Source: Candidatus Argoarchaeum ethanivorans (GTDB lineage Archaea; Halobacteriota; Methanosarcinia; Methanosarcinales; EX4572-44). Taken from it: a DNA stretch of 64,000 bases. The stretch lies in contig CAJHIS010000002.1 of assembly GCA_905067555.1 (NCBI GenBank), positions 3,900-67,899 of the forward strand. Direction: 5' to 3'. Positions 3,966 through 61,612 of this stretch are shown piece by piece. How positions within the stretch are numbered: the stretch's first letter is position 1; every line of letters starts with the position of its first letter. A program made the position numbers and the translations under genes. The notes below the pieces were generated by a model, which worked only from the letters and a program-made list of their open reading frames with translations, searched no databases and was not told the DNA's origin.

Positions 3966-4003
3966 GAATAATAATAGAGAGCTGCTCACGTTGTGTGCGG
4001 TTC

Positions 4004-4022
4004 TGCACAACGAAGTTGTGCA
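4004..4022. repeat. Palindromic hairpin repeat, type A (tgcacaac-gaa-gttgtgca)
   Basis: Perfect 8-bp arms around a 3-nt centre, just downstream of the acyP stop. The same sequence recurs at many other intergenic sites in this window. Confidence 0.85.
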
Positions 4023-4126
4023 GTTTGAAGAATATCCCCTAAGTAGCCGCGCACGAATAACCTGAACATTTAAGGTAATATATCTCGAAACTACTTCCTG
4101 CCAACCCATTTCATCACAAAATTAAC

Positions 4127-4163
4127 AATCTCCGTGTCTCTCCGTGTACTCTGTGGTTTAATC
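4127..4163 (+). repeat. 10-bp-phased CTNGTG motif cluster (aatctccgtg tctctccgtg tactctgtgg ttt), site 1 of 4
   Basis: Three phased units followed by a T/A-rich run. The last unit is one arm of an 11-bp inverted repeat, ctctgtggttt (4149-4159) / aaaccacagag (4199-4209). Similar clusters occur at 15611, 31361 and 49681. Confidence 0.6.
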
Positions 4164-4351
4164 TATAAGATAATTTAAATAATATATCCTGAGAAATAAA
4201 ACCACAGAGGCAGAGAAAAGATGGATCAATCACACAATCAGGAGATTGAACTGTGACGACATCACAGGAGATCAACAACTTTATACATTATTACAATACA
4301 ATAGCTTGTGACAGAACATCCAGAATGCTGATACATGAAAGTCAAGTTAAA

Positions 4352-4965
4352 ATGATGAAAACTGCACTATTTATTCCAGTCGCACTGATGCTCGTGTTTT
4401 TCGCACCTCTTTCAGGTGCAGAAGTAATGACATTAAACGTGAGCCCACTGGTAGTTGACACTGGCGATTTGATGATATTTACTTCCCTGAAGGCGAAAAA
4501 AAATTTTCTGTGACTGCTGAAAATATAAAAAATCTTGATGTAACCTTGTATCCAGCACCCTTTTGGAGTACTATCAAAATCAATTGTTCCGGGCAAAACA
4601 TGACAACCACGGTTCTTGGAAAAACAATTACAACGCCACTAGATCAATCAATAGATGAAACTGGCTCTGTAAGTTTTTCCATGTCATTTCCAATAGAGAT
4701 ATTTGGAATGAGTCTTGATTTCTTTGGTGAGAAAGATATTACTGTCTCAGGAGATGCGGCAGATGGTGCATTAACTGTAAACTTAAAGCTTGCAGCTTGT
4801 CTTCGCGGGGATATGGACTGTGATGACGAAATCACTTCTACAGATGCCGCAATTACACTGCAACATGCGGTCAGTGGTGAATATGACACCATTGCTGATG
4901 TCAGTGGCAATGGAAGAGTTACATCACTCGACGCACTCATGATCTTGCAGATGGCTGATAGGTGA
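4352..4965 (+). pseudogene. Secreted dockerin-domain protein, split over two frames (signal-peptide ORF to 4513, dockerin ORF from 4510). Apparent -1 frameshift at an A8 tract.
   Basis: ORF1 carries the signal peptide MMKTALFIPVALMLVFFAPLSGAEV and stops at 4513. The second frame is open from 4459 and ends in a dockerin-like repeat (GDMDCDDEITSTDAAITLQ...DVSGNGRVTSLDALMILQ). The A8 run lies at 4496-4503. Confidence 0.6.
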
Positions 4966-5092
4966 TAGACTTAGACGTTCTCGTTATTAGCACTTTAATT
5001 AAGAGGGGGGCAAAATGGGAAATATAAACGCATTCGTTTATCTTGCTCTTTGAAATTTGATATCATGCGCCATTTCTACCAATGGAACTCAA

Positions 5093-6343
5093 TTATTTTT
5101 TTCTCTTTTTATATAATACAATTCCAACTACCAGAGCCGCCGCTATAATAATTACTATTGGAAGCAGTAGCGATGTAGATGATTCTTTTGCCGGACAAAC
5201 TACCAGTTGTGCTGTTCGTGAGAATAATACAACGGTGTCCTTGTTTGTCTCAACTCCCCGCAGTTCCACATCAAGGAGGTATTTTTTTGGAGGTGCATCT
5301 TCTTTGACCTGCACGCGTATCAACGCTTCACCACTTTCTCCCGGTTTAAGTTTTCCTATGAAGTCTGATTTTTCATCAAAATCAAACGGTTGTGTCGAAT
5401 CCTTGAACACGCGAAGGCTTGCTGCATCAACTTCCTCGCTTCCAGTGTTTTTAACGTTGATTAGAAGACTTACGTATGTGCCAGGATATACTTCTGCCGG
5501 GCTTGTTTTTACTGATTCTATCACCAGATAGGGTGAGCCTTTAATTGGAATGTTAAGAGGCAGGAGTTTTGTTCTGTACTGGTTGTCTTCATCGTCATCT
5601 TCTTTGTAAGTGATGGTGATTGTGGCATTATACTCACCTGGTTGAAGTCCTTCCGCTGTGTCGATGTAGAAGTATGCAGTTTTACTTTCACTTTCATTGA
5701 TTGTGCCAAGTGCATCTTCATCAGAGTATGCATAGCTTGCATCAAAACCTTCTGGCAAAGAGAGCGCTATCTTCACGTTCTCTGCATCTTCACTTCCTAT
5801 ATTTGCAATGTCAACTTTGAGTAATGCTTCATCTGTATCCTGCACGAGGCGTTCCGGTGAGGTACGAAGCGCTCCGATTGTAAAATCCGGTTTGCTTGGG
5901 TCTACGTAAAGTGTGAAGTATTTTTCAGTATAACCCCCGCTGCCGTCATTCCAACGCAGGCTTACATTATGTTCGCCTTTAAGAGCATCACCTGCCACCT
6001 TGAGCTTGTAGTGAAGCACATAGTACTCTTCCATTTCATTGCTTGGAACAACTCTGCCAAGACTTTTTTTTGGACTATCTCCTGCCTCGAAGAGAAATGG
6101 ATAGCCTGCATCGAGGTAGAATTCAAGTTCATCGATCGTTCCAATCTTGGTTACAACAACCCTCCAGCGAAGGTCAAGGTATTTACCAGAGTCTGCCGGG
6201 TCAGGATCCTGGTTCATAAGGTACACGTGGACAGTGCTTCCAACTTTCCCAGTAATTGGAGTGCTTTCTGCCGGTAGAGCAAGAATGCTCATGCAGAAAA
6301 CCAGTACAAGGATTGTTAATATTTTGTTTAATACTTTTTTCAT
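5093..6343 (-). CDS. Cell-surface protein with repeated CARDB/S-layer-like beta-sandwich domains (COG1361-like), signal peptide and C-terminal TM anchor
   Basis: 416 aa with an N-terminal signal sequence (MKKVLNKILTILVLVFCMSILALPA) and repeated motifs such as ...V.N.GSE.A.NV. The C terminus is hydrophobic followed by KKRKK. It is the last gene of an operon with two RND-type exporter halves. Confidence 0.65.
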   Translation of the reverse strand: MKKVLNKILTILVLVFCMSILALPAESTPITGKVGSTVHVYLMNQDPDPADSGKYLDLRWRVVVTKIGTIDELEFYLDAGYPFLFEAGDSPKKSLGRVVPSNEMEEYYVLHYKLKVAGDALKGEHNVSLRWNDGSGGYTEKYFTLYVDPSKPDFTIGALRTSPERLVQDTDEALLKVDIANIGSEDAENVKIALSLPEGFDASYAYSDEDALGTINESESKTAYFYIDTAEGLQPGEYNATITITYKEDDDEDNQYRTKLLPLNIPIKGSPYLVIESVKTSPAEVYPGTYVSLLINVKNTGSEEVDAASLRVFKDSTQPFDFDEKSDFIGKLKPGESGEALIRVQVKEDAPPKKYLLDVELRGVETNKDTVVLFSRTAQLVVCPAKESSTSLLLPIVIIIAAALVVGIVLYKKRKK

Positions 6344-11339: not shown

Positions 11340-11378
11340 TCACAACTACTCTCGCTATTAACAATGGCACCTCAGCAC

Positions 11379-11428
11379 TGCACAACTTCGCTTTCGCAGA
11401 GATAACTCTCGAGTGCGAAGCAGTCGAG
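11379..11428. repeat. Hairpin-repeat cluster (degenerate type A plus ctcgagtgc-gaa-gcagtcgag)
   Basis: Reads tgcacaacttcgctttcgcagagataact followed by ctcgagtgcgaagcagtcgag. It sits between convergent genes. Confidence 0.7.
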
Positions 11429-11514
11429 TGCAAGAAAATAACGTGTAATGTATTCTCACCATGTATCAAAGTTCAGCAGCAAGAGAACGAGGTGCATTTA
11501 TATTTTCTTATACG

Positions 11515-12174
11515 TTAAAAAAGCAGGAAAATATAACTGGATATAAAATAAAGTCCTGCCAGCACCAGTACAATCCCGGAAACTCTCCTGATAATCAAAC
11601 TGTATTTAATAAACGGTTTTAATGTGAAACGTGAGGTGTATGCAATCACAAGAAGGGGCAGCCCCAGGCCCAGCGAATAGATAACTAAAAGGAAGCCCCC
11701 ATAAAGTATGTCTCCTTCCACTGCTACCATTGTGAGTATCGCACCAAGTATTGGACCGATGCAGGGTGTCCAGACAATACCAAGCGAAAAACCGAGTACG
11801 AAACCCCCAGCCACTCCCCCGACATTGGTCGCAGAAAGTCTCTTGATTACACCAGTTCCTGTGTCTGGCACAAGTGCACGAATTTTTTGTTCTATCACAT
11901 CAAATATCATATATATGCCGAGAAATACAATCAGAATCCCACCGGTAATATAAAGTATAGTTTGATACTGCTGAAATACTGAGCCAAAAGCAGAAGCAAG
12001 CACACCCATCGCAGCAAATGAGATGGAAAGCCCAATAACTATTGTAATTGGTACAAATTTACTCGACTTGGTTGAGTATGCTGCAATCAGCGGAATCACC
12101 GGAAGTACGCAGGGTGATAAAACGCTTAATACACCAAAGAAGAAGGCAATAAATGGCGATGGCGCCGCCATCAT
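11515..12174 (-). CDS. ccdA: CcdA/DsbD-type thiol:disulfide electron-transfer membrane protein (cytochrome c biogenesis family)
   Basis: 219 aa, polytopic, with conserved Cys in TM1 (SPCVLPVIP) and TM4 (WTPCIGP). Confidence 0.8.
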   Translation of the reverse strand: MMAAPSPFIAFFFGVLSVLSPCVLPVIPLIAAYSTKSSKFVPITIVIGLSISFAAMGVLASAFGSVFQQYQTILYITGGILIVFLGIYMIFDVIEQKIRALVPDTGTGVIKRLSATNVGGVAGGFVLGFSLGIVWTPCIGPILGAILTMVAVEGDILYGGFLLVIYSLGLGLPLLVIAYTSRFTLKPFIKYSLIIRRVSGIVLVLAGLYFISSYIFLLF

Positions 12175-12683: not shown

Positions 12684-12786
12684 CTTTTTGTTTGCATCGT
12701 GATGACAGTATATAAGTACTCGCTTTATCCAGTATCTCCAAAAACCTTCTTCGATTTCTTTAGTTCAGCGGCACCATTCAAGAAAC

Positions 12787-13012
12787 TGCACAACTTGATT
12801 GCTAACGCACTCGATTGCTCCGCAATCGAGAATTAAAGGTTACCGGTATTGTGTTTGCTGCACTCGATTGCTAGCGCAATCGAGAGTTGTTTTCGCACAC
12901 GGAGTGTGCGTTTCTGCACAACGAAGTTGTGCAGTTACTGGTTATTTTCCGCACAACGAAGTTGTGCAGTTACTGGTTATTTTCCGCACAACGAAGTTGT
13001 GTGGTTGTGCAG
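12787..13012. repeat. Large cluster of stacked hairpin repeats, including a 35-bp tandem repeat (about 2.6 copies)
   Basis: Type B hairpins at 12810-12830 and 12863-12884; gcacacggagtgtgc at 12895-12909; type A copies at 12915-12933, 12951-12967 and 12986-13003 with a 35-bp period (tgcacaacgaagttgtgcagttactggttattttc). Confidence 0.9.
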
Positions 13013-14215
13013 CTTCTTAAAAACCTTGAGCTTAAAATCGATTACTGCTGCCATAAAATTAACTGCTGCATCAAAAGGCGAATTGTGAATACTGAAATAA
13101 GAATGAACATCGCCATCAGAAAGCCACTTGGTGCACATATAATAATAGTGATCCGAGGTTTGCAGATACCGCCAGATTTTGATCAACTCACAGTCTCCGG
13201 TCATTTTCACATACGGCTCAAGAAGCTTTATCTCCTCAAAACACCTTCGCTGCATGTCGTTTCCAAGCCATGCACTGGTGTCACGTTCCATATCTGCCCA
13301 TGAGATCGTGGAAAAATCACCAACATCAATCTCACCGTGAGAAGGGTACATGGATACAACCTCTGAAGGCGTGTTAAAGCTTAAACCAGCAGAAAGCACT
13401 TCGTCTGGCAGGTGTCTTAAAAACTCAAATATTCCAGTGTCTGTCCATTGATGCTCTCCGAATGTCTCATAATCCATAAAGATATTAAACGTGTCTCCCT
13501 CGGCCGAAGACACCCAGTGAGCCCATTTATCAGCAGTAAGCGGATACTCGCTCCACCATCGTGCTGAGAAACGATACGCGATATCATCACTCAACCGATA
13601 GTTTCGAAACAATACAGAGAGGTCGGTCTCGGAAGCTGTATACACATAGTTTGGTGAACGATTGCTTAATGCGTGCTCTATGCCTTCAGTCAATATTGCC
13701 TTGTAACCAAGACCTGACACTGCACGAGCAATGGAATTATTATACAATACCTCGGTGTTTCTAAACACCTTTGGAGCATAACGAAACTCATCCTGCATCA
13801 GTGCATTGTGCTCGCGTATTTGCTCTTTAAACTCGTCTTTTGATTCAAACAAACCAGATAGAGAATGATAATAGGTCTCATCAATGAACTCAACACAACC
13901 GGAATCCGCCATCTGCACAAAGGTTTCAAGAAGGTCTTTGTCCCATCGCTGCAACTGGTTAATTAACGTGCCGGTGACAGAATAACTCACCTTAAACTCT
14001 TTGGAGTGTGTATCGATTAACTCCAGAATTAGTTTATTAGCAGGCCAGTAACATTTGGATGAAACCTTTTTGAGTAACGTCTTATTGATGTGGTCGTCAA
14101 AGTATCGGTCAAAAGAAGAGCGGTTATCTGGCCAGAACCACCTGAGGCGATAAGGCTGATGCACCTGAAAATAAAAACAGACAGACCGCAAAAGTTTAGA
14201 CCCGCCTCCGTGCAT
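12977..14215 (-). CDS. Glycoside hydrolase family 57 protein (alpha-amylase-like)
   Basis: GH57 signatures FQVHQPYRL, NTEVL and MDYETFGEH. The likely start is ATG 14215 (MHGGGSK...), because the track ORF start at 14332 lies inside the upstream paralog. The last codons run into the hairpin repeat cluster. Confidence 0.75.
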   Translation of the reverse strand: MHGGGSKLLRSVCFYFQVHQPYRLRWFWPDNRSSFDRYFDDHINKTLLKKVSSKCYWPANKLILELIDTHSKEFKVSYSVTGTLINQLQRWDKDLLETFVQMADSGCVEFIDETYYHSLSGLFESKDEFKEQIREHNALMQDEFRYAPKVFRNTEVLYNNSIARAVSGLGYKAILTEGIEHALSNRSPNYVYTASETDLSVLFRNYRLSDDIAYRFSARWWSEYPLTADKWAHWVSSAEGDTFNIFMDYETFGEHQWTDTGIFEFLRHLPDEVLSAGLSFNTPSEVVSMYPSHGEIDVGDFSTISWADMERDTSAWLGNDMQRRCFEEIKLLEPYVKMTGDCELIKIWRYLQTSDHYYYMCTKWLSDGDVHSYFSIHNSPFDAAVNFMAAVIDFKLKVFKKLHNHTTSLCGK

Positions 14216-23001: not shown

Positions 23002-24114
23002 ATGAGTGTAATTGAAGATTATTTTAAAAAGGTGCAAGACCAGTTAAGCTTTGATGATTTTTTGAAGCGCGTCGAGGAGAAAAGAGAAGTCATGGCAGGT
23101 CTGTGCGATGATGATACTTTATGTAGCATGGTATTACAGGAGCTCGGTGTCGACTCGATAAAAAAAATTTCAGAGATAACAGTTGATTCCGGAAAGGTTA
23201 GTATAAAAGCAAAGGTATTATCTGTATCAGAGGTTAGAGAATTCTCACGTGACAAGGGAAATGCAGGGCATGTATCAAATCTTATTGTAGGAGATGAAAC
23301 TGGCAGCATCAGGACGGTATTGTGGGACGATGCAGCGGACTTAGTAAAAACCAAAGAAATACAGAAGGATAGCAACCTGAACATATTCGGCAGTGTGCGA
23401 AATGGACAGAATGGACTTGAAATACATGTTGGGCGTGGTGGCAGAATAGACCTGCTTGACCAGGACATTAGTGCACATGTAAACAAGTGTCAGGTGGCAG
23501 ACATTGGTGAAGGAACGGCAAGCGTCAATCTCACAGCAAAAATAATTGATGCAGGCAATCTCAGGTTCTTCAAACGCAGGGATGGAAGCGAAGGAAAGGT
23601 GAGAACTGTAACACTGGGTGATCAAACCGGTAAAATAAACCTCACACTCTGGGACGAATCTGCAGAGACAATGCTTGTGGAAGACGAGGTTATTGAAATA
23701 ACAAATGCTTACTCAAAAAAGAATAATTACACCAACAACATAGAGCTGCAGTTAAGCCGTGATAGCCTGATAAACAAGACTGAAGCTCCCATAGACTATA
23801 ATGAGAAAATAACACCCATCAATGACATTGAGTTAGACAACACTTACAGCATACAGGGCTTTGTGAGCGGTATTGGTGAAATCAGAGAATTCACACGCAG
23901 GGACGGCAAAACAGGGCAGGTTGCAAACATCCACGTTTCAGACGATACAGGACGTGTAAAAGCAACACTCTGGGGAGATCAGGCTAACATAATCGATGAA
24001 GTCGATATTGGAAGTGAAGTAACGATCACCGGTGCAATGGCAAAGACAGGGCTAAACGAAGAAATCGAACTTAACCTTGACTGGAATAGTAAAATCAAAA
24101 TACTGCGAAAATAA
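23002..24114 (+). CDS. rpa: RPA-type ssDNA-binding protein with three tandem OB folds and no zinc finger (Methanosarcina RPA1-like)
   Basis: Three repeats of the pattern V..REF.R.DG..G.V....VGD.TG.I..TLWD. I took the start at MSVIEDYF (23002), inside the track ORF 22990..24114. Confidence 0.8.
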   Translation: MSVIEDYFKKVQDQLSFDDFLKRVEEKREVMAGLCDDDTLCSMVLQELGVDSIKKISEITVDSGKVSIKAKVLSVSEVREFSRDKGNAGHVSNLIVGDETGSIRTVLWDDAADLVKTKEIQKDSNLNIFGSVRNGQNGLEIHVGRGGRIDLLDQDISAHVNKCQVADIGEGTASVNLTAKIIDAGNLRFFKRRDGSEGKVRTVTLGDQTGKINLTLWDESAETMLVEDEVIEITNAYSKKNNYTNNIELQLSRDSLINKTEAPIDYNEKITPINDIELDNTYSIQGFVSGIGEIREFTRRDGKTGQVANIHVSDDTGRVKATLWGDQANIIDEVDIGSEVTITGAMAKTGLNEEIELNLDWNSKIKILRK

Positions 24115-24116
24115 CT

Positions 24117-24155
24117 CTCGACTACGAAGTAGTCGAGCTACGTAAAGTAGTCGAG
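24117..24155. repeat. Hairpin repeats, type C (ctcgactac-gaa-gtagtcgag plus a partial second copy)
   Basis: A perfect 9-bp stem with a GAA loop at 24117-24137, then ctacgtaaagtagtcgag. It lies between the rpa stop and the next gene. Confidence 0.85.
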
Positions 24156-28765: not shown

Positions 28766-28874
28766 TGCACTTGATTGCTAACACACTCGATTGCTTGCAC
28801 AACTCGATTGCTTGCACAACTCGATTGCTTGCACAACTCGATTGCTTGCACAACTCGACTACTTCGTAGTCGAG
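28766..28874. repeat. Hairpin-repeat cluster with a 17-bp tandem array (ctcgattgcttgcacaa x4) ending in a type C hairpin
   Basis: Tandem copies start at 28786, 28803, 28820 and 28837, followed by ctcgactacttcgtagtcgag at 28854-28874. The leader tgcacttgattgctaacacactcgattgc is homologous to 12787-12818. Confidence 0.9.
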
Positions 28875-30853: not shown

Positions 30854-30859
30854 TGTAAA

Positions 30860-31587
30860 TTAAACAAACCTAATACATGACTTTCGGGTATCCGGATTCT
30901 GCTGCCAACTCGATTGAGACAAAACATCTACATGCCAAATTTTATAGAGTGGCAATAAGGATCGCTGATATCCATTGTGTTCAATATGCAAAGACCTTTA
31001 CCTAAGTTTATCCATCAACTCTGGCTCTTTTGGATTCATCTCTGATTCCATTCTTTTCTCATCATTGGCAATAAAAGCAACGCCCCAGGGATGGAAAATC
31101 GATTCGAATAGTGGCTACAATTCAAATTTTTCATGATCCATAATTACCTCTATTTTCAAGAGTGGCTTTTCCAGTTTCGCTTTGAGTTGTGTTATTTGTT
31201 TATGCCCTTTAATCTATTTTGGGTACAGAGGTGCCTGTGGAAGCGGTCTACTAATGGCAAAAAATCCAAGCCACTCTCGACGCTATGGTTATTTAGCATG
31301 TTCACAAATTAGGTAAACTATTCACTGGGCGTTCCCTGAAACCCGATTCATATCGCTGTTTTCTTGTGGAAATCTGTGTAATCTCGTGGTTAGTTTGAGC
31401 CAGACAAATCTAAAACCCACAACTTAATCTTGTGGGAGCTAAACATGTACCATTTTTTTATTTATACAAATATCTCTAATGGAAATCAAGGGGTCCCAAG
31501 CAACATCGTTAATAAGCATTATTTCTATTTCAGTTCTGCAAACAACAGGATGATTGGTGTTTTTGGTATGTTCTTGAGGTCGTTTAA
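30860..31587. other. Candidate replication origin (oriC) in the 730-bp non-coding region upstream of orc1/cdc6
   Basis: Four copies of A(G/T)AGTGGC (about 30948, 31110 and 31161 direct; about 31266 inverted). The mini-ORB-like element ttcttgtggaaat lies at about 31361, with related GTGG elements. An A/T-rich stretch, ccatttttttatttatacaaatat, lies at 31450-31473. The region adjoins cdc6. Confidence 0.45.
31361..31395 (+). repeat. 10-bp-phased CTNGTG motif cluster, site 3 of 4 (ttcttgtgga aatctgtgta atctcgtggt tagtt)
   Basis: Same unit family as at 4127, 15611 and 49681. It lies about 195 bp upstream of cdc6. Confidence 0.55.
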
Positions 31588-32820
31588 ATGGCTGTAGTAA
31601 ATAGTATATTCGAAAAATTTCTCTCCAATGTTCAAATCTTTGAAAACAGGGAAGTGTTGCGTCACACATATACTCCTGAACACCTGCCTCACCGTGATGT
31701 ACAGGTGGAAAGCCTTGCTGCTATTCTGGTTGCCGCTCTTCGAAAAGATACTCCGTCAAATGTTTTGATCTATGGCAAGACTGGAACCGGGAAAACAGCT
31801 GTGACAAAGTATGTGGGAATGGAGCTTGAGAAAAGCGGTGAAATTCATGGAGTCCCTTGCTATGTTATTTATATAAACTGTGAAATCGTTGACACACAGT
31901 ACAGGCTGCTAGCGCATCTTGCAAGGCACTTTGACAAAGACATCCCTATGACTGGTTGGCCAACAGATCAAGTGTATGCTGAGTTTAAAGAAGCTCTTGA
32001 TAGTGAAAAAGCAATCGTTATTGTCGTTTTGGATGAGATTGATAAACTCGTTAAAAAGGGAGATGACGTATTATATAATCTTTCCCGGATAAACGGGGAT
32101 CTGCATAAAGCTCGCATGGCTATTATTGGAATCTCCAATGATTTAAATTTCACTGAATTTTTAGATCCAAGAGTTAGAAGCTCGCTTGGAGAAGAGGAAA
32201 TAATTTTTCCCCCGTACGATGCCAAACAGATAAAAGACATCTTGAGTCAGCGCGCTGTTATGGCATTTAAGACAGGAGTTCTCGAAGAAAATGTCATACC
32301 ACTGTGTGCTGCTTTTGCCGCACAAGAGAATGGTGATGCACGCCGTGCTCTTGATCTACTTCGAGTATCTGCTGAACTGGCAGAACGTGAAAAATCATCC
32401 ATGGTACGGGAAGAGCACGTGAGGGCAGCCCATGAAAAAATAGAACTTGATAGAGTTGCTGAAGTGGTATGTACTCTTCCAACCCAGTCAAAGCTTGTGC
32501 TACTTTCAGTATTGAAATTGGTTGAGGGTGGGGGGAATCGTTTCATTACTGGTCAGGTGTACCATACATATTGCAAGATGTGCTTACAGATCCAAATGGA
32601 TGTCCTGACTCATCGTCGTATTACCGATCTGATTTCAGAACTGGATATGCTTGGCATTATCAACGCGATGGTTATAAGTAAAGGCAGATATGGTCGTACC
32701 AAGGAAATTTCTTTGAGCACCCCTCTTGAAAGTACCATGAAAACACTCTTCAAGGATTACAGGCTGCAACCATTAATCAACTTTAAAGCACCTGTGGTAG
32801 CACAGACGAAATTTTATTAA
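31588..32820 (+). CDS. cdc6: Orc1/Cdc6 replication initiator
   Basis: 410 aa with Walker A GKTGTGKT, Walker B VVLDEID and a C-terminal winged helix. Confidence 0.92.
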   Translation: MAVVNSIFEKFLSNVQIFENREVLRHTYTPEHLPHRDVQVESLAAILVAALRKDTPSNVLIYGKTGTGKTAVTKYVGMELEKSGEIHGVPCYVIYINCEIVDTQYRLLAHLARHFDKDIPMTGWPTDQVYAEFKEALDSEKAIVIVVLDEIDKLVKKGDDVLYNLSRINGDLHKARMAIIGISNDLNFTEFLDPRVRSSLGEEEIIFPPYDAKQIKDILSQRAVMAFKTGVLEENVIPLCAAFAAQENGDARRALDLLRVSAELAEREKSSMVREEHVRAAHEKIELDRVAEVVCTLPTQSKLVLLSVLKLVEGGGNRFITGQVYHTYCKMCLQIQMDVLTHRRITDLISELDMLGIINAMVISKGRYGRTKEISLSTPLESTMKTLFKDYRLQPLINFKAPVVAQTKFY

Positions 32821-32827
32821 ATAGTTA

Positions 32828-33096
32828 ATTTTTTAAAAACGTATAGGAAAGTATAAACACACTTCATTTTCTTGCTATTGAAATTCGATACATGACTTGC
32901 TGCACTCGATTGCTTCACAATCGAGAACTAAAAGCTACCTGTTATTTTCTACACAACGAAGTTGTGTAGTGCTTGCGTAATCAAGAATCAGAGGTTGTCG
33001 ATAATTCTGCGAAAGCGAAGTTATGCAGTGCTTCTTGTAATCGAGAGTTATTTCCACGCATGGATTGCGTGGTTCTGCGAAAGCGAAGTTGTGCAG
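32828..33096. repeat. Composite repeat element: T-run plus cgtataggaaagtataaac box plus at least 6 stacked hairpins
   Basis: The first ~90 bp (32828-32915) are closely similar by eye to 39754-39838. Hairpins lie at 32905-32925, 32949-32969, 32972-32985, 33007-33028, 33054-33072 and 33075-33096. It sits between convergent cdc6 and the signal peptidase gene. Confidence 0.85.
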
Positions 33097-33100
33097 TTCT

Positions 33101-33676
33101 TCATAAATTTGGTAAAGGTAGCACTGAATGAGCAAAGAGGGGTAGATATCCAATATAAGGAATGCGACAGACTGCAATTCCTACAACCCACTCCTTTTTT
33201 ACAGGTGTATGATAACAGATGTTTCCCTCCTGATCATAGTATCGATTGGTTATCTTGTTATCCCCTTTTGTAATATAGCCATCATGGGGTGCAGGAGGCC
33301 CATTCTCCCACATGGGTTCACCCTTTTTAACAAAGTACATGGCCCGGTGAATGATAGGCGTTATATCAGCACGCCCGTTTTTTTTATATAAAATGACATT
33401 TCCGTAGTTGTTAAAAGAATTGTAACCCTGCTCCTTTCCATCCATGTATGTGATAATTTCCCCACGATTCAGAGTTTTTATAAAAATAATATCTCCAACT
33501 TCCATATTATGTTCCATGCTTCCGGATTCCACTGCTACCATCGGATGATATGTTCCAAATACGACCTTGGATGCAGATGTAAACACTATAAGAATAAACA
33601 CCACAAAAATTAGATCGTTGGCAAACCTGACCCAATAATTATCACTTTTTCTAAATTTTTTTATTGCATCTTTCAT
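33101..33676 (-). CDS. Signal peptidase I, archaeal Sec11/S26B type
   Basis: 191 aa with an N-terminal TM segment and the catalytic-Ser motif ESGSMEH. Confidence 0.8.
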   Translation of the reverse strand: MKDAIKKFRKSDNYWVRFANDLIFVVFILIVFTSASKVVFGTYHPMVAVESGSMEHNMEVGDIIFIKTLNRGEIITYMDGKEQGYNSFNNYGNVILYKKNGRADITPIIHRAMYFVKKGEPMWENGPPAPHDGYITKGDNKITNRYYDQEGNICYHTPVKKEWVVGIAVCRIPYIGYLPLFAHSVLPLPNL

Positions 33677-39576: not shown

Positions 39577-39753
39577 ATGATGGCAGGTCAGTATGGAATT
39601 TGTGCCATCTGCGGAACAGTCGCACCGCTGCACACATGCCCACTTTGTGGCAGACTTGTATGTAGTAACTGCCTTACAGCAGAGGGGATATGCCTCTGGT
39701 GCAGCAGGGGCAGAATGATACAGCAATACAGGCTGAAAAATAGCGAATTCTAA
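39577..39753 (+). CDS. Small Cys-rich zinc-finger protein (58 aa)
   Basis: Hand translation gives MMAGQYGICAICGTVAPLHTCPLCGRLVCSNCLTAEGICLWCSRGRMIQQYRLKNSEF. It falls below the apparent length cutoff of the ORF track. Confidence 0.5.
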   Translation: MMAGQYGICAICGTVAPLHTCPLCGRLVCSNCLTAEGICLWCSRGRMIQQYRLKNSEF

Positions 39754-39905
39754 TTTTTTTAAACGTATAGGAAATTATAAACGCAACAACACTCTCTTGC
39801 TATTGAAATTCGATACATGACTTACTGTATTCGATTGCTGCATAATCGAGAGTTATTTTCACACACGAAGTGTGTGGTTCTGCACAACGAAGTTGTGCAG
39901 TTTTT
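39754..39905 (+). repeat. Composite repeat element: T7 run, cgtataggaaattataaac box, three stacked hairpins and a terminal T5 run (candidate sRNA gene or MITE-like element)
   Basis: Hairpins at 39830-39850 (type B), 39860-39876 (cacacacgaagtgtgtg) and 39881-39899 (type A), then ttttt. It is homologous to 32828-32925 and to 12863-12933. Confidence 0.8.
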
Positions 39906-39913
39906 GATATTAG

Positions 39914-40846
39914 TTACCATTCATTCGACAGATCATCCGGGTGTGACAGCAGTTCATTCACATACAGCGGTTTGTTTGTTTTAGCCATGTATAATCGCAC
40001 CCACCACAAAGTGGTTAATGGCTGAACGATGATTATAGAAACGAACGTGCTGATAAATCCTCCAACTTTTGGCACAGACCCAATAACCAGATTCGAGACA
40101 ATGGCTATTGCAACGGTAAAAATTAAGAGCAGTATCACATCAAGTTTGTGTGATACAAAAAACCCAAATCCTGTTTTAATAGCATCGATCGGGTGAAGGG
40201 ATTCGATTACTAATATGTATGGTGCAATAAAAAGAACAGTGATTACTATAACCATATATGTTATCCAGAGAAATATCCCGAGAATAAGAGTTCCTATACC
40301 GGCACCACCTTGACCACTAAACAGTGCAGGGGATAAAAGTGCTGCAGGTAATAGGAATACGATTCCAACAAGCAGAAACAAGCCGATTAAGATGTCTGTT
40401 AACAAAAGGCTGATAACGTGTTTTTTAGCATAGTTCATCATATCTGCAAAACCTGTGCTGCCTTTTTCTGTTGCTGCCTTTGCCATCTCGATTGCACCAG
40501 CTTTAAAAAACGTTCTGATAATGAATAAGCCGATAATGATAATTAAAAAAGATAGAATCAGATGAGCGATATATGGTTTGATCAGCAGCAAGAGAGAAGC
40601 AGCCCCCACTGCCGGCATCTCTTGACCCTCTGACATAGATCTACTGATTATCTGCACTCTGTCAAAAAATTGAGCGGTTGTATCAAATCCAATAACAAAT
40701 GCAACTGCAACGCCAACCATGCCTACAAACAGCATAGAAAAAAGAGAGTCCAGAATGAAAGGCAGTGCAATGTTTAGATTGTTCTTCCAGGTTTCAAAAC
40801 CCTTTTCAATGATTTTTCCGAATTCTTCACTCATACATCCACACAA
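39914..40846 (-). CDS. Polytopic membrane protein, unknown function
   Basis: 310 aa with at least 6 predicted TM segments. The likely start is MSEEFGK at 40834. Confidence 0.6.
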   Translation of the reverse strand: MCGCMSEEFGKIIEKGFETWKNNLNIALPFILDSLFSMLFVGMVGVAVAFVIGFDTTAQFFDRVQIISRSMSEGQEMPAVGAASLLLLIKPYIAHLILSFLIIIIGLFIIRTFFKAGAIEMAKAATEKGSTGFADMMNYAKKHVISLLLTDILIGLFLLVGIVFLLPAALLSPALFSGQGGAGIGTLILGIFLWITYMVIVITVLFIAPYILVIESLHPIDAIKTGFGFFVSHKLDVILLLIFTVAIAIVSNLVIGSVPKVGGFISTFVSIIIVQPLTTLWWVRLYMAKTNKPLYVNELLSHPDDLSNEW

Positions 40847-43631: not shown

Positions 43632-43787
43632 TCCTATAAAACAACTGTGATAGTGTTTGTTTTAAGCCTTGATTACTGCCTAATCAAGAGTTATCTTAAT
43701 GTCGCAAGCATCAGAAAACCCAAACAGGGATTGAAACTACGAAGTATATGGCCGAGCCATTTAACACTTCCAAGCTAAAAATCAGAA

Positions 43788-43872
43788 CGCCGAGGAGGAG
43801 ATTTGAACTCCTGCGGGACGAAGTCCCACCGGTTTTCAAGACCGGCGCCGTAGGCCGCTTGGCTACCTCGGC
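43788..43872 (-). tRNA. tRNA-Ser(UGA)
   Basis: GCCGAGGTAGCCAAGCGGCCTACGGCGCCGGTCTTGAAAACCGGTGGGACTTCGTCCCGCAGGAGTTCAAATCTCCTCCTCGGCG is a class II tRNA with a long variable arm. Confidence 0.9.
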
Positions 43873-43875
43873 AGC

Positions 43876-44032
43876 TTTTTTAACGTATAGGAAAGTATAA
43901 ACGCAACCATGTTCTCTTACCTTGATTACTTCGTAATCAAGAATTGTTTTCTGTACAACGAAGTTGTACAGTGCTTCTCGCAATCGAGAATTAAAGGTTA
44001 TAGGTTATCTCTGCAAAGCGCAAGCTTTGCAG
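43876..44032. repeat. Composite repeat element (T-run, cgtataggaaagtataaac box, four hairpins)
   Basis: cttgattacttcgtaatcaag at 43921-43941; ctgtacaacgaagttgtacag at 43951-43971; a half type B hairpin at 43977-43988; ctgcaaagcgcaagctttgcag at 44011-44032. The linker aattaaaggtta matches 12831-12842. Confidence 0.85.
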
Positions 44033-44036
44033 TTTC

Positions 44037-44717
44037 TTAAGTAGCTGTTTTGATGTTGTTTTCGGTGTAGGTTTCTGTATATATTACCTCTGTAATATTA
44101 GTGTATTTGATAATCTCCTCAGCAAGCTTTCGTTTTGAGACAGCCCATTGTGGCATTTGAGATATTTTAATTGGTACATCCATGGTAGCTGTGCTGTTGT
44201 TTATGTCAACTCCAGGAGTTTCTTTGGTGTAAAGATGCATTAATCTTTTTATTTTTTCAAGTTCATCCTCGATTTTTTCTTCTATTTTGTACGTGTAATA
44301 CAGCGTTTCGTTTGATAATAGGTTATTAAAATCTACCTGCACCCGCCGCCCTATAACCCGGTGAACAGTGCCGTATTTTCCGTCTATCTGTACCATTGCC
44401 CCAACTTCTATTTTTTCTTTGAATTGGTTGATGTTGTAGCTTTTTATAAGCTCCGGGTCATATTCACCGAACCCCTTTTCTGGTGGTATGGAAACCGCTC
44501 CATTATAACCCACTTCTTTTCCAATTACATCTTCTTCAAGTCCTTCTAATGCATACCCTGCACCAACGATGATTATTTCTTCATTATAGGAATAGGCGTC
44601 GTCATATATGTCGTTGTCTCTGGCTATTTGCTCGTCTGTTGTGTCAAAGATTTCTCCATTTTCATCTTTAATTTGTCCTGTATAGGTTAGTTTGATAAAA
44701 TCACCTTTTTGAATCAT
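44037..44717 (-). CDS. FKBP-type peptidyl-prolyl cis-trans isomerase (long archaeal type)
   Basis: MIQKGDFIKLTYTG...GEIFDTT... with an IF-domain insert and a C-terminal domain. Confidence 0.85.
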   Translation of the reverse strand: MIQKGDFIKLTYTGQIKDENGEIFDTTDEQIARDNDIYDDAYSYNEEIIIVGAGYALEGLEEDVIGKEVGYNGAVSIPPEKGFGEYDPELIKSYNINQFKEKIEVGAMVQIDGKYGTVHRVIGRRVQVDFNNLLSNETLYYTYKIEEKIEDELEKIKRLMHLYTKETPGVDINNSTATMDVPIKISQMPQWAVSKRKLAEEIIKYTNITEVIYTETYTENNIKTAT

Positions 44718-44850
44718 AATACGATACCTCTCTTTGTTAGTGGTGGATTTACTATAAAAGTTTTGCTATGTTGGCAGAGCCACTATGCGTAGGAAAGTAT
44801 AAATACTACCCTACTGCGCAGCAAGCTCCACGTGAATGAACTTTGAGCAT

Positions 44851-50490: not shown

Positions 50491-50590
50491 CTGCACAACT
50501 TCGTTGTGCAGAGATAACTAATAACTCAAACGGTGATGTTTTAACAGTAACTATCAACAATTACACGTGTTGTGCAGAGATAACCAATAA
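50491..50590. repeat. Hairpin repeat (type A) plus a duplicated gttgtgcagagataac..aataact half-copy
   Basis: tgcacaacttcgttgtgca at 50491-50509, and a second half-copy at 50568-50590. Confidence 0.8.
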
Positions 50591-56948: not shown

Positions 56949-58262
56949 TTACAACGCCTCCTCGTTCGTGTTTTTGGATTGCTCGATTGCTACGCAATCG
57001 AGAGTTGAGTGTGTAGTGCTGCCCTCTGTTTGCGTTGTATGCAGTTGTGATAGAAGTTCATCCACTGCCTCTTTTGTTATCTTTGGTAATGCTTTTATCT
57101 CACTCACTATCAGGTGTCGATCAATCTTTGTTCCGATTATTGTATAATATCTACCGATGATTTTTGATTTTATTCTGTCTGTTACTATGTTGTGATCAAG
57201 TGCTTCTATTGCCATGTCTTTTGCTTCAACGAGAGTTATGTTTGTTAGTTCTTCGCTCAATTCTTTGTTTATGATAGCTTCCTGTGTGGTCTTACCATCG
57301 TCTATCACAGCTTTTATCCGAAGATCGTACACACCTTCGACCTTGCCGTGTTCAGTACAAACTCCTTTAGCTAGTGCCCTGTTGCATTCCGGACATCTTT
57401 TTATCAGTCCTGAGCCGTTTTGCACGTCAACGATAACACCTGTAAATTCTGCTGTTTGGATGCTTACTTCCACATCTTCTTCTATTTCAGTGATGCTTGT
57501 CGCTTTGTTCAGTTTTATACTATATCTGCCCTGCCAAACATCTGTTACTGCACTCTCTATTAGATAGGATTTGCCTTCCTCCAATGGTTCAGGAATTGTT
57601 ACTCCCTGAAATATGGTAAATCTTATAATTCCAGTTTCATCTCCAACAAGACCTACCTGAACAATAGATTCATTGTTTGCATCCCACAATTGAGTGACTT
57701 TTACCCTAAGAGTTACCCACTGCCCTTCCTGATTTATATCCTGTATGGATATGATATCGCCAGTGCCTACTTCCACATCTTCTTCTATTTCAGTGATGCC
57801 TGTCGCTTTGTTCATGTTTATCTGGTATTTGTCCTGCCAAACACCTGTTACTGCCGTTTTTACCAGGTAGGATTTGCCTTCCTCCAATGGTTCAGGAATT
57901 GTTACTCCCTGGAACATGGTAAATTTTATAATTCCAGTTTCATCTCCAACAAGACCTACCTGAACGATTGATTCATTGTTTGCTTCCCACAATTGGACAA
58001 CTTTTACCTTGAGAGTTACCCACTGCCCTTCCTGGTTTATGTCTTGTATAGCTGTGATGTCATTTGTAGAACCAGCATAGTACTGGCTTCTATCAATATC
58101 ATGTTCTTTCAGAAAATAATTAACCACGCTTCGTTTAGCTTCTCCAATTGGCACTTTAAATTCACTCGTTAGTTTCTCAAGTCGTTCCCCAGTTTCCTTT
58201 TCAGACAACTCTACTCCAAGTTGTGAAAACCGATTTACTATTTCTTGAACTGTATTTGACAT
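56949..58262 (-). CDS. rpa: RPA ssDNA-binding protein: two near-identical tandem OB folds plus a zinc-finger OB fold
   Basis: 437 aa. Residues 72-165 and 173-266 are near-identical repeats, followed by CPECNRALAKGVCTEHG. The C-terminal tail is encoded by a type B hairpin repeat. Confidence 0.85.
   Translation of the reverse strand: MSNTVQEIVNRFSQLGVELSEKETGERLEKLTSEFKVPIGEAKRSVVNYFLKEHDIDRSQYYAGSTNDITAIQDINQEGQWVTLKVKVVQLWEANNESIVQVGLVGDETGIIKFTMFQGVTIPEPLEEGKSYLVKTAVTGVWQDKYQINMNKATGITEIEEDVEVGTGDIISIQDINQEGQWVTLRVKVTQLWDANNESIVQVGLVGDETGIIRFTIFQGVTIPEPLEEGKSYLIESAVTDVWQGRYSIKLNKATSITEIEEDVEVSIQTAEFTGVIVDVQNGSGLIKRCPECNRALAKGVCTEHGKVEGVYDLRIKAVIDDGKTTQEAIINKELSEELTNITLVEAKDMAIEALDHNIVTDRIKSKIIGRYYTIIGTKIDRHLIVSEIKALPKITKEAVDELLSQLHTTQTEGSTTHSTLDCVAIEQSKNTNEEAL
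56981..57001. repeat. Type B hairpin repeat (ctcgattgctacgcaatcgag) inside the 3' end of the rpa CDS
   Basis: Read directly from the sequence. It encodes ...STLDCVAIEQS... near the C terminus. Confidence 0.85.
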
Positions 58263-59246: not shown

Positions 59247-59351
59247 CAGGTAAAGTGATGTACACCATCAATAATATATCTTGCCAGGGAATCAATTTCC
59301 ACCCACAAAGATTATTAGTAGGCAGGCATATAAGTTTGATGTCGGCACCAC

Positions 59352-59413
59352 TGCACAACTTCGTTGTGCAGAGATACAAATAACCTTTGACTCTTGATTA
59401 CGAAGCAATCGAG
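59352..59413. repeat. Hairpin repeats (type A plus a type B/C hybrid) immediately upstream of tRNA-Cys
   Basis: tgcacaacttcgttgtgca at 59352-59370 and cttgattacgaagcaatcgag at 59393-59413. Confidence 0.85.
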
Positions 59414-59417
59414 TCGC

Positions 59418-59489
59418 GCCAAGGTGGCGGAGTGGCTACGCTATCGCCTGCAGAGCGATCACATTCCGGTTCGAATCCGGACCTTGGCT
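59418..59489 (+). tRNA. tRNA-Cys(GCA)
   Basis: GCCAAGGTGGCGGAGTGGCTACGCTATCGCCTGCAGAGCGATCACATTCCGGTTCGAATCCGGACCTTGGCT with anticodon loop CTGCAGA and discriminator U. Confidence 0.9.
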
Positions 59490-59524: not shown

Positions 59525-61612
59525 ATGTCTGCACATTCATCACCACAGAAGTGGAAAGAATTCTTAAAGTCATCCTACAAAGATGAAATTACCAATCTTG
59601 CTGAAGAGTATCCTGATGTTAGAAGTCTTAGTATATCTTTTTTTGACATAGAACAGTTCGATCCGGAACTGGCAGATGAACTTCTAAACTTCCCGGATGA
59701 GGTGCTAAGAGACGCCAAACAAGCACTACTTGATATTGGTGATACGAAAGGAGTTGATTTTTCAAAAGCTCACCTGCGAGTAAGAGATCTTGCATCACAC
59801 GTTCGGATACGCAGCATTCGAAGTAATCATATCGGAAAACTGATTGCGGTTGAAGGGTTGATTCGAAAAGCTACTGAGGTACGCCCAAAGATCACCCGTG
59901 CAGTATTCCACTGCCCTTATGAACACGAGACAGTGGTTATGCAGGGTGAGAAATTCGTAGAGCCTTATGAATGTGATGATGCCAACTGCTCCCGAAAAAA
60001 AGGACCTTTTATTCTCTCGAAAGAAAAATCCACTTTTCTGGATGCACAAAAGATTCGCATACAGGAATCACCGGAAGGTCTTAGAGGTGGTGAGCAGCCG
60101 CAGACACTCGACGTTCTTGTAGTTGATGACCTTGCTGGAATAACTGCTCCCGGGGATCGCATAATTATTACAGGGGTGCTTCGCTCTTACCAGCGCGTAA
60201 ATTACAACACCAAAACCACATTCTTTGACATAGTGCTTGATGGCTTATCCATCGATGTGGAAGACAAGGAATTCGAGGATATCGTACTATCATCTGAAGA
60301 CATTGAAATGATAAAAACTCTTGCCGCTGACACCGGGATTTATGAGAAAATGATACGAAGCATAGCTCCGAGCATCTATGGCTACAGTGAAGTAAAAGAA
60401 GCAATATCCCTTCAACTGATGAGCGGTGTATCCAAGAAACTTCCGGACGGCTCACGGATCAGAGGTGATATTCATATACTGCTTATCGGAGACCCTGGCA
60501 TTGCAAAATCACAGCTTCTACGATACACTGTCAAAATTGCACCCCGTGGTATTTATACAAGCGGTAAAAGCTCAACATCGGCAGGGCTTACAGCCGCAGC
60601 AGTAAAGGATGAATTCGGAGATGGACGATGGACTCTTGAAGCCGGTGCATTAGTACTTGCAGATAAAGGAATTGCAGGTGTTGATGAAATGGATAAAATG
60701 AAGCCTGATGATCGTGCATCACTGCATGAAGCAATGGAACAACAAACCATAAGCATAGCAAAGGCAGGAATAATGGCGACCTTGCAATCCCGCTGCTCGC
60801 TGCTTGGTGCTGCAAACCCGAAATATGGACGCTTTGACCAGTATGACAACATCGCCAAACAAATAAACATGCCGCCAACACTTCTGTCGCGATTCGACCT
60901 GATATTTATTCTTACGGATAAGCCAACGATAGAACGAGACACGCAAATATCCAATCATATTTTAAAAGCACATTACGCGGGTGAACTTAGCATGCAGAAA
61001 GAACACGTCCCAAACTCAGGCATAACCAGTAAGCAGATAGAACATGCAATGAAAGTAATACAGCCAGAAATAGAGCCTGAACTGATGCGAAAATATATTG
61101 CCTACGCCAAACGCAACATTTATCCTCTTATGAGCGATGATGCCAGGGAAAAAATCATCAACTTCTATCTTGGACTCAGGAAACAGGGGGAAGACCCCAA
61201 TTCACCAGTTCCGGTTACTGCAAGGCAGCTTGAAGCTTTAGTAAGACTTGCAGAGTCGAGTGCACGTATCCGCCTGAGCAATGAAGTAAATGTAGATGAC
61301 ATAGAACGAGTGATACGCATAGTAACCACAAGCCTTGAGCAGGTGATGACAGACCCGGAGACTGGTATGCTTGATGCCGACATTATTTCTGTTGGTACAA
61401 GCAAAAGCCAGAGAGACAAAATACACATACTTAGAGATATAATAAGAGAGCTTCAGCATGCACATGATGGTGTAGCACCCCGTGAAGATGTGATAGAGCA
61501 TGCAGAAGAACAAGGTATTAATAGAGACAAGGTGGAAGACATACTATCAAAACTTAAGAACTCGGGAGAAATATACGAGCCTAAAAATGGATACGTTAAA
61601 ATATCGCAATAA
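59525..61612 (+). CDS. mcm: MCM replicative helicase
   Basis: 695 aa with Walker A GDPGIAKS, Walker B DEMDKM, the arginine finger SRFDL and a zinc motif in the N-terminal domain. Confidence 0.93.
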   Translation: MSAHSSPQKWKEFLKSSYKDEITNLAEEYPDVRSLSISFFDIEQFDPELADELLNFPDEVLRDAKQALLDIGDTKGVDFSKAHLRVRDLASHVRIRSIRSNHIGKLIAVEGLIRKATEVRPKITRAVFHCPYEHETVVMQGEKFVEPYECDDANCSRKKGPFILSKEKSTFLDAQKIRIQESPEGLRGGEQPQTLDVLVVDDLAGITAPGDRIIITGVLRSYQRVNYNTKTTFFDIVLDGLSIDVEDKEFEDIVLSSEDIEMIKTLAADTGIYEKMIRSIAPSIYGYSEVKEAISLQLMSGVSKKLPDGSRIRGDIHILLIGDPGIAKSQLLRYTVKIAPRGIYTSGKSSTSAGLTAAAVKDEFGDGRWTLEAGALVLADKGIAGVDEMDKMKPDDRASLHEAMEQQTISIAKAGIMATLQSRCSLLGAANPKYGRFDQYDNIAKQINMPPTLLSRFDLIFILTDKPTIERDTQISNHILKAHYAGELSMQKEHVPNSGITSKQIEHAMKVIQPEIEPELMRKYIAYAKRNIYPLMSDDAREKIINFYLGLRKQGEDPNSPVPVTARQLEALVRLAESSARIRLSNEVNVDDIERVIRIVTTSLEQVMTDPETGMLDADIISVGTSKSQRDKIHILRDIIRELQHAHDGVAPREDVIEHAEEQGINRDKVEDILSKLKNSGEIYEPKNGYVKISQ

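Follow-up and report, generated by a model that had tools for sequence, protein, structure and literature searches.

Intergenic hairpin repeats of Candidatus Argoarchaeum ethanivorans as probable miniature derivatives of an archaeal IS91-type element

Insertion sequences (IS) of the IS91 family have neither inverted repeats nor target duplications, carry subterminal palindromes and insert by a T-centred tetranucleotide (PMC13181058). In IS91 itself, this tetranucleotide, CTTG or GTTC, abuts the oriIS end, downstream of the transposase gene tnpA, and mini-elements consisting of the two ends can be mobilised in trans (PMC13181058). Miniature derivatives are also found in Pseudomonas syringae, where those of IS801 measure 229, 360 and 679 nt (PMC3189936). 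Here, we analyse an intergenic repeat in a 64,000-nt stretch of the genome of Candidatus Argoarchaeum ethanivorans (contig CAJHIS010000002.1, positions 3,900 to 67,899; hereafter the window, numbered from its first letter). An earlier note, made from the sequence alone, had flagged the copy at 39754-39905 as a candidate small-RNA (sRNA) gene family or a miniature inverted-repeat transposable element (MITE). Very probably, the repeats are internally deleted, non-autonomous copies of an archaeal IS91-family IS, with an HUH transposase of the Y2 class and a rolling-circle type of transposition. Of the two options in the earlier note, the MITE is the closer one.

The likeness to IS91, IS801 and IS1294 includes the transposase, as full-length relatives of the repeat encode Y2_Tnp and Zn_Tnp_IS91 domains with an invariant HUH motif and two tyrosines. 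As in the rest of the family, inverted terminal repeats and target duplication are absent, and a subterminal palindrome is present at the end. A T-centred tetranucleotide lies by one end and a related CTTG at the other, and short derivatives consist of the ends alone, as in the transposable mini-IS of IS91. Unlike the known family, however, the element resides in archaea (Methanosarcinales: GoM-Arc1, anaerobic methanotrophic archaea of the ANME-2 group, Methanoperedens), its preferred flank, where oligo-T runs end, is TTTN and not CTTG/GTTC, and its left terminus is a 21-nt AT-rich box resembling an archaeal promoter with transcription factor B recognition element (BRE) and TATA box. Moreover, the tetranucleotide-flanked end is upstream of tnpA here and downstream in IS91, and the transposase is extended at its C-terminus by a further domain, which matches the archaeal MCM winged helix below threshold.

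The archaeal copies and the miniature IS801 derivatives are both short, gene-less IS91-family fragments between family tetranucleotides, and those of IS801 are moved by a transposase acting in trans (PMC3189936). Whereas the IS801 derivatives are one-ended, with the right end only, the archaeal copies keep both ends around an internal deletion, and they have an expanded stack of hairpin modules, tandem units and, in the window, a density of about one locus per 5 kb. With MITEs they have in common that they are small, non-coding, multi-copy, intergenic, non-autonomous, derived from an autonomous IS and polymorphic between strains. To this extent the MITE proposal stands, but terminal inverted repeats and target-site duplications are lacking, and the ends are asymmetric, with a box on one side and a hairpin on the other. 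Non-autonomous Helitrons are alike in their asymmetric ends, 3' subterminal hairpin, tandem arrays and abundance of gene-less derivatives, and in that they insert at a short T/A-rich site without duplicating it; they differ in that they depend on a RepHel transposase, are eukaryotic and are much larger. Our literature search found no description of an IS91-type element in archaea with its ends, target and miniature derivatives. The kind of element, IS91-type, is known; new is the archaeal form with terminator-proximal insertion and modular miniature derivatives.

Copies in the window and their empty sites

The box-bearing copies, beginning with the flagged one, are composed as follows.

39754-39760, no strand: T-run outside the element, directly 3' of the stop codon (39751-39753) of a 58-aa zinc-ribbon open reading frame (ORF); terminator-like; the empty site in four sister-lineage contigs (L204-L207) reads ...gaattccaaTTTTTTATATTAGTTACC.
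39761-39906 (+/-1 nt per end), + strand: flagged miniature element, the whole insert from the filled versus empty comparison, with box, leader, three hairpins and terminal TTTTTG.
39762-39782, + strand: box AACGTATAGGAAATTATAAAC, conserved left terminus of the IS family and probable BRE/TATA promoter of the transposase.
39783-39822, + strand: leader (GCAACAACACTCTCTTGCTATTGAAATTCGATACATGACT), with homology to the untranslated 5' part at the left end of full-length copies.
39830-39850, + strand: B-type hairpin, imperfect, TTCGATTGC-TGC-ATAATCGAG.
39860-39876, + strand: C-type hairpin, CACACAC-GAA-GTGTGTG.
39880-39900, + strand: A-type hairpin, CTGCACAAC-GAA-GTTGTGCAG, subterminal palindrome of the right end.
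39901-39906, + strand: terminal TTTTTG, in which the right terminus of the family, TTTCTTG(A), is present in degenerate form.
32838-33102, + strand: second copy, with box, leader, at least six hairpin modules and the end gtgcagTTCTTC, between the Cdc6/Orc1 gene (31588-32820) and a convergent ORF.
43881-44038, + strand: third copy, with box, truncated leader, B, A, half-B, a terminal hairpin at 44011-44032 and TTTCTT, between the FKBP stop codon and tRNA-Ser; empty site in L197-L202.
11378-11516, - strand: fourth copy, with diverged box (11516-11496), leader, B hairpin (11428-11408) and A-like hairpin (11399-11378).
44787-44806, + strand: partial box (TAGGAAAGTATAAATAC), a match of 14-17 nt.

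A pattern scan of the window returned exact + strand matches to the 21-nt box, AACGTATAGGAAA(G/T)TATAAAC, at 32838, 39762 and 43882, which bears out the tataaac-type box reported earlier for three loci. The expected number of exact matches is zero, and 100 shuffles of the window gave none. A fourth box with three mismatches, on the - strand at 11516-11496, had been overlooked. The earlier note had also described a longer collinear element at the three loci. This applies to the copies at 32828 and 39754, which have in common a leader, TCTCTTGCTATTGAAATTCGATACATGACTT, of 62 nt with 89% identity, but not to the copy at 43876, which retains only the first ~7 nt of it; in the 11516 copy (- strand), the leader is present in diverged form. 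The fragment claimed at 44787-44806 is indeed a partial box, with no more of the element attached; it is either an old remnant of short length or a match by chance, and the FKBP promoter does not need it. In total, the window holds four box-bearing copies of 140-270 nt each and at least eight box-less fragments, and all repeat loci together make up about 2% of it.

Between the two ends of the window copies lies a variable stack of short hairpin modules. Three types can be distinguished, A (CTGCACAAC-GAA-GTTGTGCAG), B (CTCGATTGC-TTC-GCAATCGAG) and C (CACACAC-GAA-GTGTGTG), which also occur without a box at eight further loci of the window, mostly at gene 3' ends. In the window copies, the A hairpin is 0-1 nt away from the T-rich terminus. 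The three-hairpin body and the end gtgcagtttttg ascribed earlier to the flagged copy are both found there; the three hairpins are predicted with z-scores, relative to shuffles, of -3.5 for RNA and -5.2 for single-stranded DNA. For the 32828 copy the RNA fold has a z-score of -2.9.

At the flagged locus, we compared orthologues of the convergent gene at 39914-40846. The four sister-lineage contigs L204-L207 (89% amino-acid identity) have an empty site, TTTTTTATATTAGTTACC, or over a longer stretch ...gaattccaaTTTTTTATATTAGTTACCATTC. At this place the window reads TTTTTTT[AAACG...GTGCAGTTTTTG]ATATTAGTTACC, with the insert in brackets, and over the longer stretch ...gaattctaaTTTTTTT[AAACGTATAGG...GTTGTGCAGTTTTTG]ATATTAGTTACCATTC. 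Where the window has one unit, a Ca. Argoarchaeum contig (97%; L203) has a longer single unit and GoM-Arc1-GOS (L109) has three tandem units. A second empty site is found at the FKBP/tRNA-Ser locus. Six related contigs (L197-L202) read ...ctactTAAaaaaaGCTGCCGAGG, without the insert of 43881-44038, its box or its hairpins, and their tRNA-Ser(UGA) starts 8 nt past the FKBP stop codon.

Both inserts are ~150 nt long and sit at the 3' end of a pre-existing T-run, and box, leader and hairpins enter as one unit. The T-run used is typically an oligo-T stretch immediately 3' of a stop codon. Most of the T-run before the box is therefore target DNA and not the start of the element, as had been assumed. 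The target-site duplications for which a search had been suggested are absent from both empty sites, the flanks being contiguous in the two filled/empty comparisons. The right terminus is constant (TTTCTTGA) whatever the left flank, and the oligo-T at the end of the 39754 copy, formerly read as a terminator, belongs to the element itself, as its degenerate TTT(C)TTG terminus. Genomes with flanks 94-97% identical differ in the number and type of their hairpins. For example, orthologues of the 11516 copy in L022 and L032 differ in hairpin number, and the array at 12776 has a module content unlike that of its Argoarchaeum ortholog.

Stop codons of neighbouring genes lie at some of the junctions. 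The TAA stop of a DsbD-like gene (11515-11517) is created at the left junction of the fourth copy by the T-run and the AA of the box. The FKBP stop codon (44037-44039) is made up of the terminal TT of the third copy and a flanking A, and the end of the 32828 copy overlaps the stop codon (33101-33103) of the ORF at 33101-33676.

Full-length relatives and a possible route of transposition

An exact-pattern scan for the box in one genome per species (596 Gb), in which a few chance matches are expected, returned at least 116 loci. Most of those listed originate from the GoM-Arc1 group (Ca. Argoarchaeum ethanivorans, Ca. Ethanoperedens thermophilum and GoM-Arc1-GOS), Methanoperedens and ANME-2, and the window is 92-95% identical to the Argoarchaeum and GoM-Arc1-GOS loci. 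Nearly all archaeal matches listed follow the order T-run, box, GCA(T/C)TT... and then a lineage-specific repeated sequence, and the short versions in every lineage end in a hairpin and TTTCTTGA. In 79% of 130 distinct archaeal copies, the flank before the box is TTTN (TTTT, TTTC, TTTA or TTTG). Tandem head-to-tail units, each ending in TTTTT, are found in L063 and L109. Furthermore, solo boxes stand directly upstream of host protein genes, namely dnaJ in L029, and also in L009.

At several loci of ANME-2 and Methanoperedens, an ORF with a CxxC...FTCKSRLCTSCG motif follows on from the T-run, box, leader and hairpin, with the box 85-210 nt upstream. This ORF encodes an IS91-family transposase of 466-468 aa, in Methanoperedens, ANME-2 and other Methanosarcinales. 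In L053, the 466-aa product matches the Pfam families Y2_Tnp (9.1e-41) and Zn_Tnp_IS91 (2.2e-22); aaattGCCCCgataGGGGCTTTCTTGA follows ~20 nt past the stop codon, and the downstream end reads ...GCCCCgataGGGGCTTTCTTGA. We retrieved 155 transposase homologues at E <= 1e-10, many of them on contigs of 1.5-1.8 kb, as is expected because a collapsed multi-copy IS would assemble in this way. Across 16 homologues, neither the HUH histidines nor the two catalytic tyrosines nor the zinc cysteines vary. The C-terminal ~60 residues (residues 404-462 in L053, ORF 3731-5131) have a sub-threshold match to MCM_WH_arc (E 0.0057, 17.1 bits against a cut-off of 26.1). With the homologue P0013, tblastn matches positions 61406-61600 of the window (E 8e-7), at the end of the ORF 59525-61612, which presumably encodes an MCM protein.

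As an independent test, 80 metagenome loci were retrieved by the transposase protein alone, the box not being used. The close relatives among them carry the box, with 0-2 mismatches, 85-95 nt upstream of the ORF, and in L117-L122 the intact ORF is followed by a GC hairpin and TTTCTTGA. In relatives at 34-41% identity the box can still be recognised, with 3-4 mismatches and at a distance of 100-280 nt upstream of the matched ORF. A T-rich stretch precedes it, which in four of these seven relatives is a clean TTTTTT run; one of them, L140, ends in gcgccgaaggcgcTTTCTTG. The related IS from the P0043 and P0069 contexts ends in a GC hairpin.

The full element is ~1.55-1.65 kb long. Its first bases are exactly those of the box, (A/G)ACGTATAGGAAAGTATAAAC, and the leader, the transposase gene, a subterminal hairpin and TTTCTTG(A) follow. 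Its ends are asymmetric and free of terminal inverted repeats, with AACGTATAGGAAAGTATAAAC on the left and a hairpin with TTTCTTGA on the right. One copy of 1653 bp, which begins with AACGTATAGG and ends with CTTTCTTGA, recurs at 100% identity in three or more different flanks and was therefore recently active. It has also been assembled as stand-alone contigs, whose first base falls among the initial 7 nt of the box and whose end lies at CTTTCTTGA or 1 nt beyond it. The left end of this copy contains GCATTTGTTTATCTTGTCGCTGAAATTTGATACATGATGAC..., the leader of the window copies. Judging by sequence homology, the window copies keep the left end (box and leader) of these full-length relatives, and their right end follows the same design, a hairpin with a T-rich terminus, with a different, lineage-specific A hairpin. 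In form the box is a BRE/TATA element, suitably spaced from the start of the transposase, and it is probably the promoter of that gene, so that miniature copies may be transcribed. Promoter activity of the predicted box in the miniature copies is likely.

We propose that a Y2 transposase, encoded elsewhere or now lost, would act in trans on the miniature copies. It would cleave the tnpA-sense strand 3' of a YTTK tetranucleotide, both at the junction of flank and box and at the right terminus. The putative cleavage sites are TTTT, TTTC or TTTG in the flank by the box, and CTTG or TTTG at the right end of the element. The hairpins would be recognised as single-stranded DNA, and the strand would be moved in rolling-circle fashion. 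Tandem units and hairpin arrays could then be products of mis-termination and of re-initiation at internal CTTG sites. The box would double as the BRE/TATA promoter of the transposase, with short hairpin RNAs from the miniature copies as a probable by-product. Indirect signs of rolling-circle transposition are the tandem units in L063 and L109, the box-less right-end fragments, and the CTTG^GACGTATAGG joins, which in L117, L119 and L120 connect partial left ends as ...gatattCTTG^GACGTATAGG.

Several points weigh against a derivation from an IS91-family element. A tblastn search with 120 homologues revealed no transposase gene, either in the window or across ~250 kb of loci from GoM-Arc1, and the metagenome loci retrieved by protein include no full-length copy with an A-type hairpin end. 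For the GoM-Arc1 lineage, the link to IS91 therefore comes from the homology of the left end and the architecture of the right end, and not from a cognate autonomous partner. The end flanked by the tetranucleotide is on the opposite side of tnpA from that of IS91 (PMC13181058), and the cleavage polarity proposed above is deduced from the comparison only. Box-less clusters have been placed in the family by their hairpin sequence only. The junctions are ambiguous by 1-2 nt because of homopolymers and because the genomes compared are ~90% identical. Finally, the covariation of the A hairpin is modest: it has some compensatory change, with six double-sided cells, a level that 13 of 500 shuffles also reach. 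Covariation across all copies, which the earlier note had looked to for support, does not emerge, as orthologues differ in hairpin number and type.

A further-reaching scenario appears rather doubtful to us. It sees the repeats as part of an undescribed archaeal branch of IS91 that targets oligo-T terminators and carries a portable, strong BRE/TATA element at its tip. The miniatures would then be mobile cassettes of terminator and promoter that emit hairpin RNAs and rewire their neighbours, and the polarity of ori and ter would be the reverse of that in IS91. Examples of such effects might be the reversed box 23-29 nt upstream of tRNA-Ser, the solo boxes upstream of dnaJ-like genes, and the stop codons provided for the DsbD-like and FKBP genes.

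Other explanations for the repeats

Could the repeat be a bona fide small-RNA gene family, with a BRE/TATA promoter, a structured RNA of 100-250 nt and an oligo-T terminator, whose function lies in the hairpin RNA? The box has a purine-rich stretch and TATAAA in the right register, it is placed like a promoter directly upstream of protein genes (dnaJ in L029; L009), the bodies of the 39754 and 32828 copies fold better than shuffles (z -3.5 and -2.9), and the tandem units of L063 and L109 each end in TTTTT. Repetitive non-coding RNA loci with conserved promoters are also known from Thermococcales (PMC3124441). However, the same ends flank a transposase gene, the copies are insertion polymorphisms, and hairpin number and type vary between genomes with 94-97% identical flanks, so that no defined RNA is conserved. 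The T-rich motif at the 3' side is the terminus of the element, conserved as TTTCTTGA and not as a plain T-run, and Rfam has no match. Taken together, this makes an sRNA gene family unlikely. A small ORF starting at the ATG of the leader was considered and rejected; its frames are not kept from copy to copy and extend into neighbouring genes in antisense.

The hairpins also resemble the repetitive extragenic palindromic (REP) sequences and bacterial interspersed mosaic elements (BIME) of Proteobacteria. Both are mosaics of extragenic palindromes at gene 3' ends with variable copy number, and both probably form single-stranded DNA hairpins for an HUH enzyme. Palindromes of this kind could have been spread by a REP-associated tyrosine transposase (RAYT; IS200/IS605-type, Y1) or kept as stabilisers or terminators at mRNA 3' ends, and the box would then be an unrelated promoter next to them. 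This would suit the two hairpin types with loops of opposite polarity in intergenic mosaics, many of them between convergent genes and many box-less, and C-GAA-G loops are said, in work by Hirao et al., to give very stable DNA mini-hairpins. We nevertheless consider it quite improbable, since box, leader and hairpins were inserted together at both empty sites, as whole units, and the terminal hairpin with TTTCTTG matches full IS91-type elements. In addition, the HUH class is Y2 of the IS91 type and not the Y1 of RAYT, the left end is promoter-like, and the hairpins have no GTAG-type head. No Y1/RAYT gene was found among the nine neighbouring ORFs scanned, the rest of the genome not having been searched.

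A relation to CRISPR, as orphan units that give CRISPR RNA (crRNA)-like or CreA-like RNAs, is hardly credible. It could draw on the ATTGAAAT of the leader, which lies near the predicted transcription start and resembles the 8-nt crRNA handle, and on a solitary CRISPR-like repeat nearby (43701-43737) with its sub-threshold CRISPR-DR60 match. Yet leader and repeat have just 7 nt in common, the motif reads CTGAAAT in other lineages, there is no repeat-spacer periodicity, and homology to the IS accounts for the whole unit.

Surroundings of the copies and significance

At the third copy, the box lies in reverse orientation 8 nt from tRNA-Ser(UGA) (43787-43873, - strand), as the earlier note had seen. 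Its suggestion that the box derives from a tRNA promoter fails, because the sister genomes L197-L202 have this tRNA-Ser without a box. Among the listed loci, aragorn places only one other box near a tRNA (L110, 75 nt), and a tRNA-promoter origin was ruled out by the empty site. In the sister genomes, the 8-nt gap leaves no room for a tRNA promoter of its own, and FKBP and tRNA-Ser may therefore be co-transcribed. In the window, the insertion parts the two genes by ~160 nt, with a reversed TTTATAC 23-29 nt upstream of the tRNA. On the other side of the tRNA, at 43701-43737, the solitary CRISPR-like repeat GTCGCAAGCATCAGAAAACCCAAACAGGGATTGAAAC lies beside the B hairpin at 43667-43697, where synteny with the sister genomes breaks. 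It covers the full length of the Rfam model CRISPR-DR60 below threshold (30.6 bits, E 0.027). Searches of Rfam with gathering and E-value thresholds returned only tRNAs and this sub-threshold repeat, with no match on the element.

The Cdc6/Orc1 gene (31588-32820) has a gene-free stretch of 734 nt upstream and the 270-nt element immediately downstream (window 30854-33100), and this region could be a replication-origin region. The idea that the repeats are origin-of-replication repeats, with the 32828 copy adjoining cdc6, was ruled out, since a dozen loci contain these modules. The same organism has been assembled independently (L221, a Logan contig of ERR3799542, 3363 nt), with a break 78 nt past the cdc6 stop, within the 32828 element; these repeats therefore fragment assemblies.

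The box-less loci of the window are the following.

3967-4028, + strand: right-end fragment with a C-like and an A hairpin and TTTGAAG.
12776-13020, + strand: hairpin array of B, B, C and then three 35-nt A units, with the end gtgcagCTTCTTAA.
24111-24137, - strand: single B-type hairpin between two + strand genes.
28769-28874, + strand: array of half-B units (17-nt tandem, five times) and one full B-type hairpin, between convergent genes.
43667-43697, + strand: single B-type hairpin at the synteny breakpoint downstream of tRNA-Ser.
50491-50590, - strand: A hairpin and a partial second copy, in reverse orientation, between convergent genes.
56979-57019, no strand: perfect B-type hairpin (56982-57002) inside, and near the 3' end of, the putative ORF 56949-58262 (- strand).
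59351-59413, - strand: A and B hairpins in reverse orientation, ending 4 nt before tRNA-Cys (59418).

In the array at 28769, the 17-nt unit ACTCGATTGCTTGCACA, half a B hairpin, is present as five perfect tandem repeats at 28785-28869. The ORF 56949-58262 (- strand) also contains two tandem copies of 298-303 nt at 57461-58061, 88% identical, which suggests a repeated protein domain. Upstream of the reversed A and B hairpins by tRNA-Cys (59418-59489, + strand), a TATA-like gcatataag is located at ~59327; this tRNA may be made with a hairpin-bearing 5' leader.

The loci from other genomes offered some further observations. The leaders of L211 (1797-2004), L002, L039, L054, L070, L073 and L113 contain CTGA-(10 nt)-ATGATGA, which is degenerate in the window copies. 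This motif resembles a box D'/C' K-loop (a C/D-like K-turn), but may alternatively pair as ATGATG...CATCAT. Some contigs binned as bacterial, L025 and L066 (a metagenome-assembled genome (MAG) of Anaerolineales), L057 (Bacteroidales), L059 (Nitrospirae) and L092 (Desulfobacteraceae Eth-SRB2), contain elements of ANME or Argoarchaeum type that also occur, in identical form, in archaeal MAGs of the same studies, and are probably mis-binned archaeal contigs. In uncultured Clostridium MAGs (L003, L014, L042, L056, L069 and L097), a multi-copy repeat has the T-run and the 21-mer AACGTATAGGAAATTATAAAC, followed by tgtttatttaataaaaag..., and nothing else in common with the archaeal copies. This 21-mer could have matched by chance and been amplified by the repeat, or it could be a bacterial form, distantly related, of this IS end.

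The derivation from an IS91-type element accounts for a conspicuous class of intergenic repeats in ethane- and methane-oxidising archaea, and for the assembly breaks there. The ends, the target and the miniature derivatives of an archaeal element of this type are now defined. For genome scanning, our results call for caution, as a perfect unit of promoter, structured RNA and terminator can be the skeleton of a transposon. The element lands in terminators with a promoter-like box, so that regulatory change in these archaea, as well as antisense or hairpin RNAs, could plausibly arise from it.

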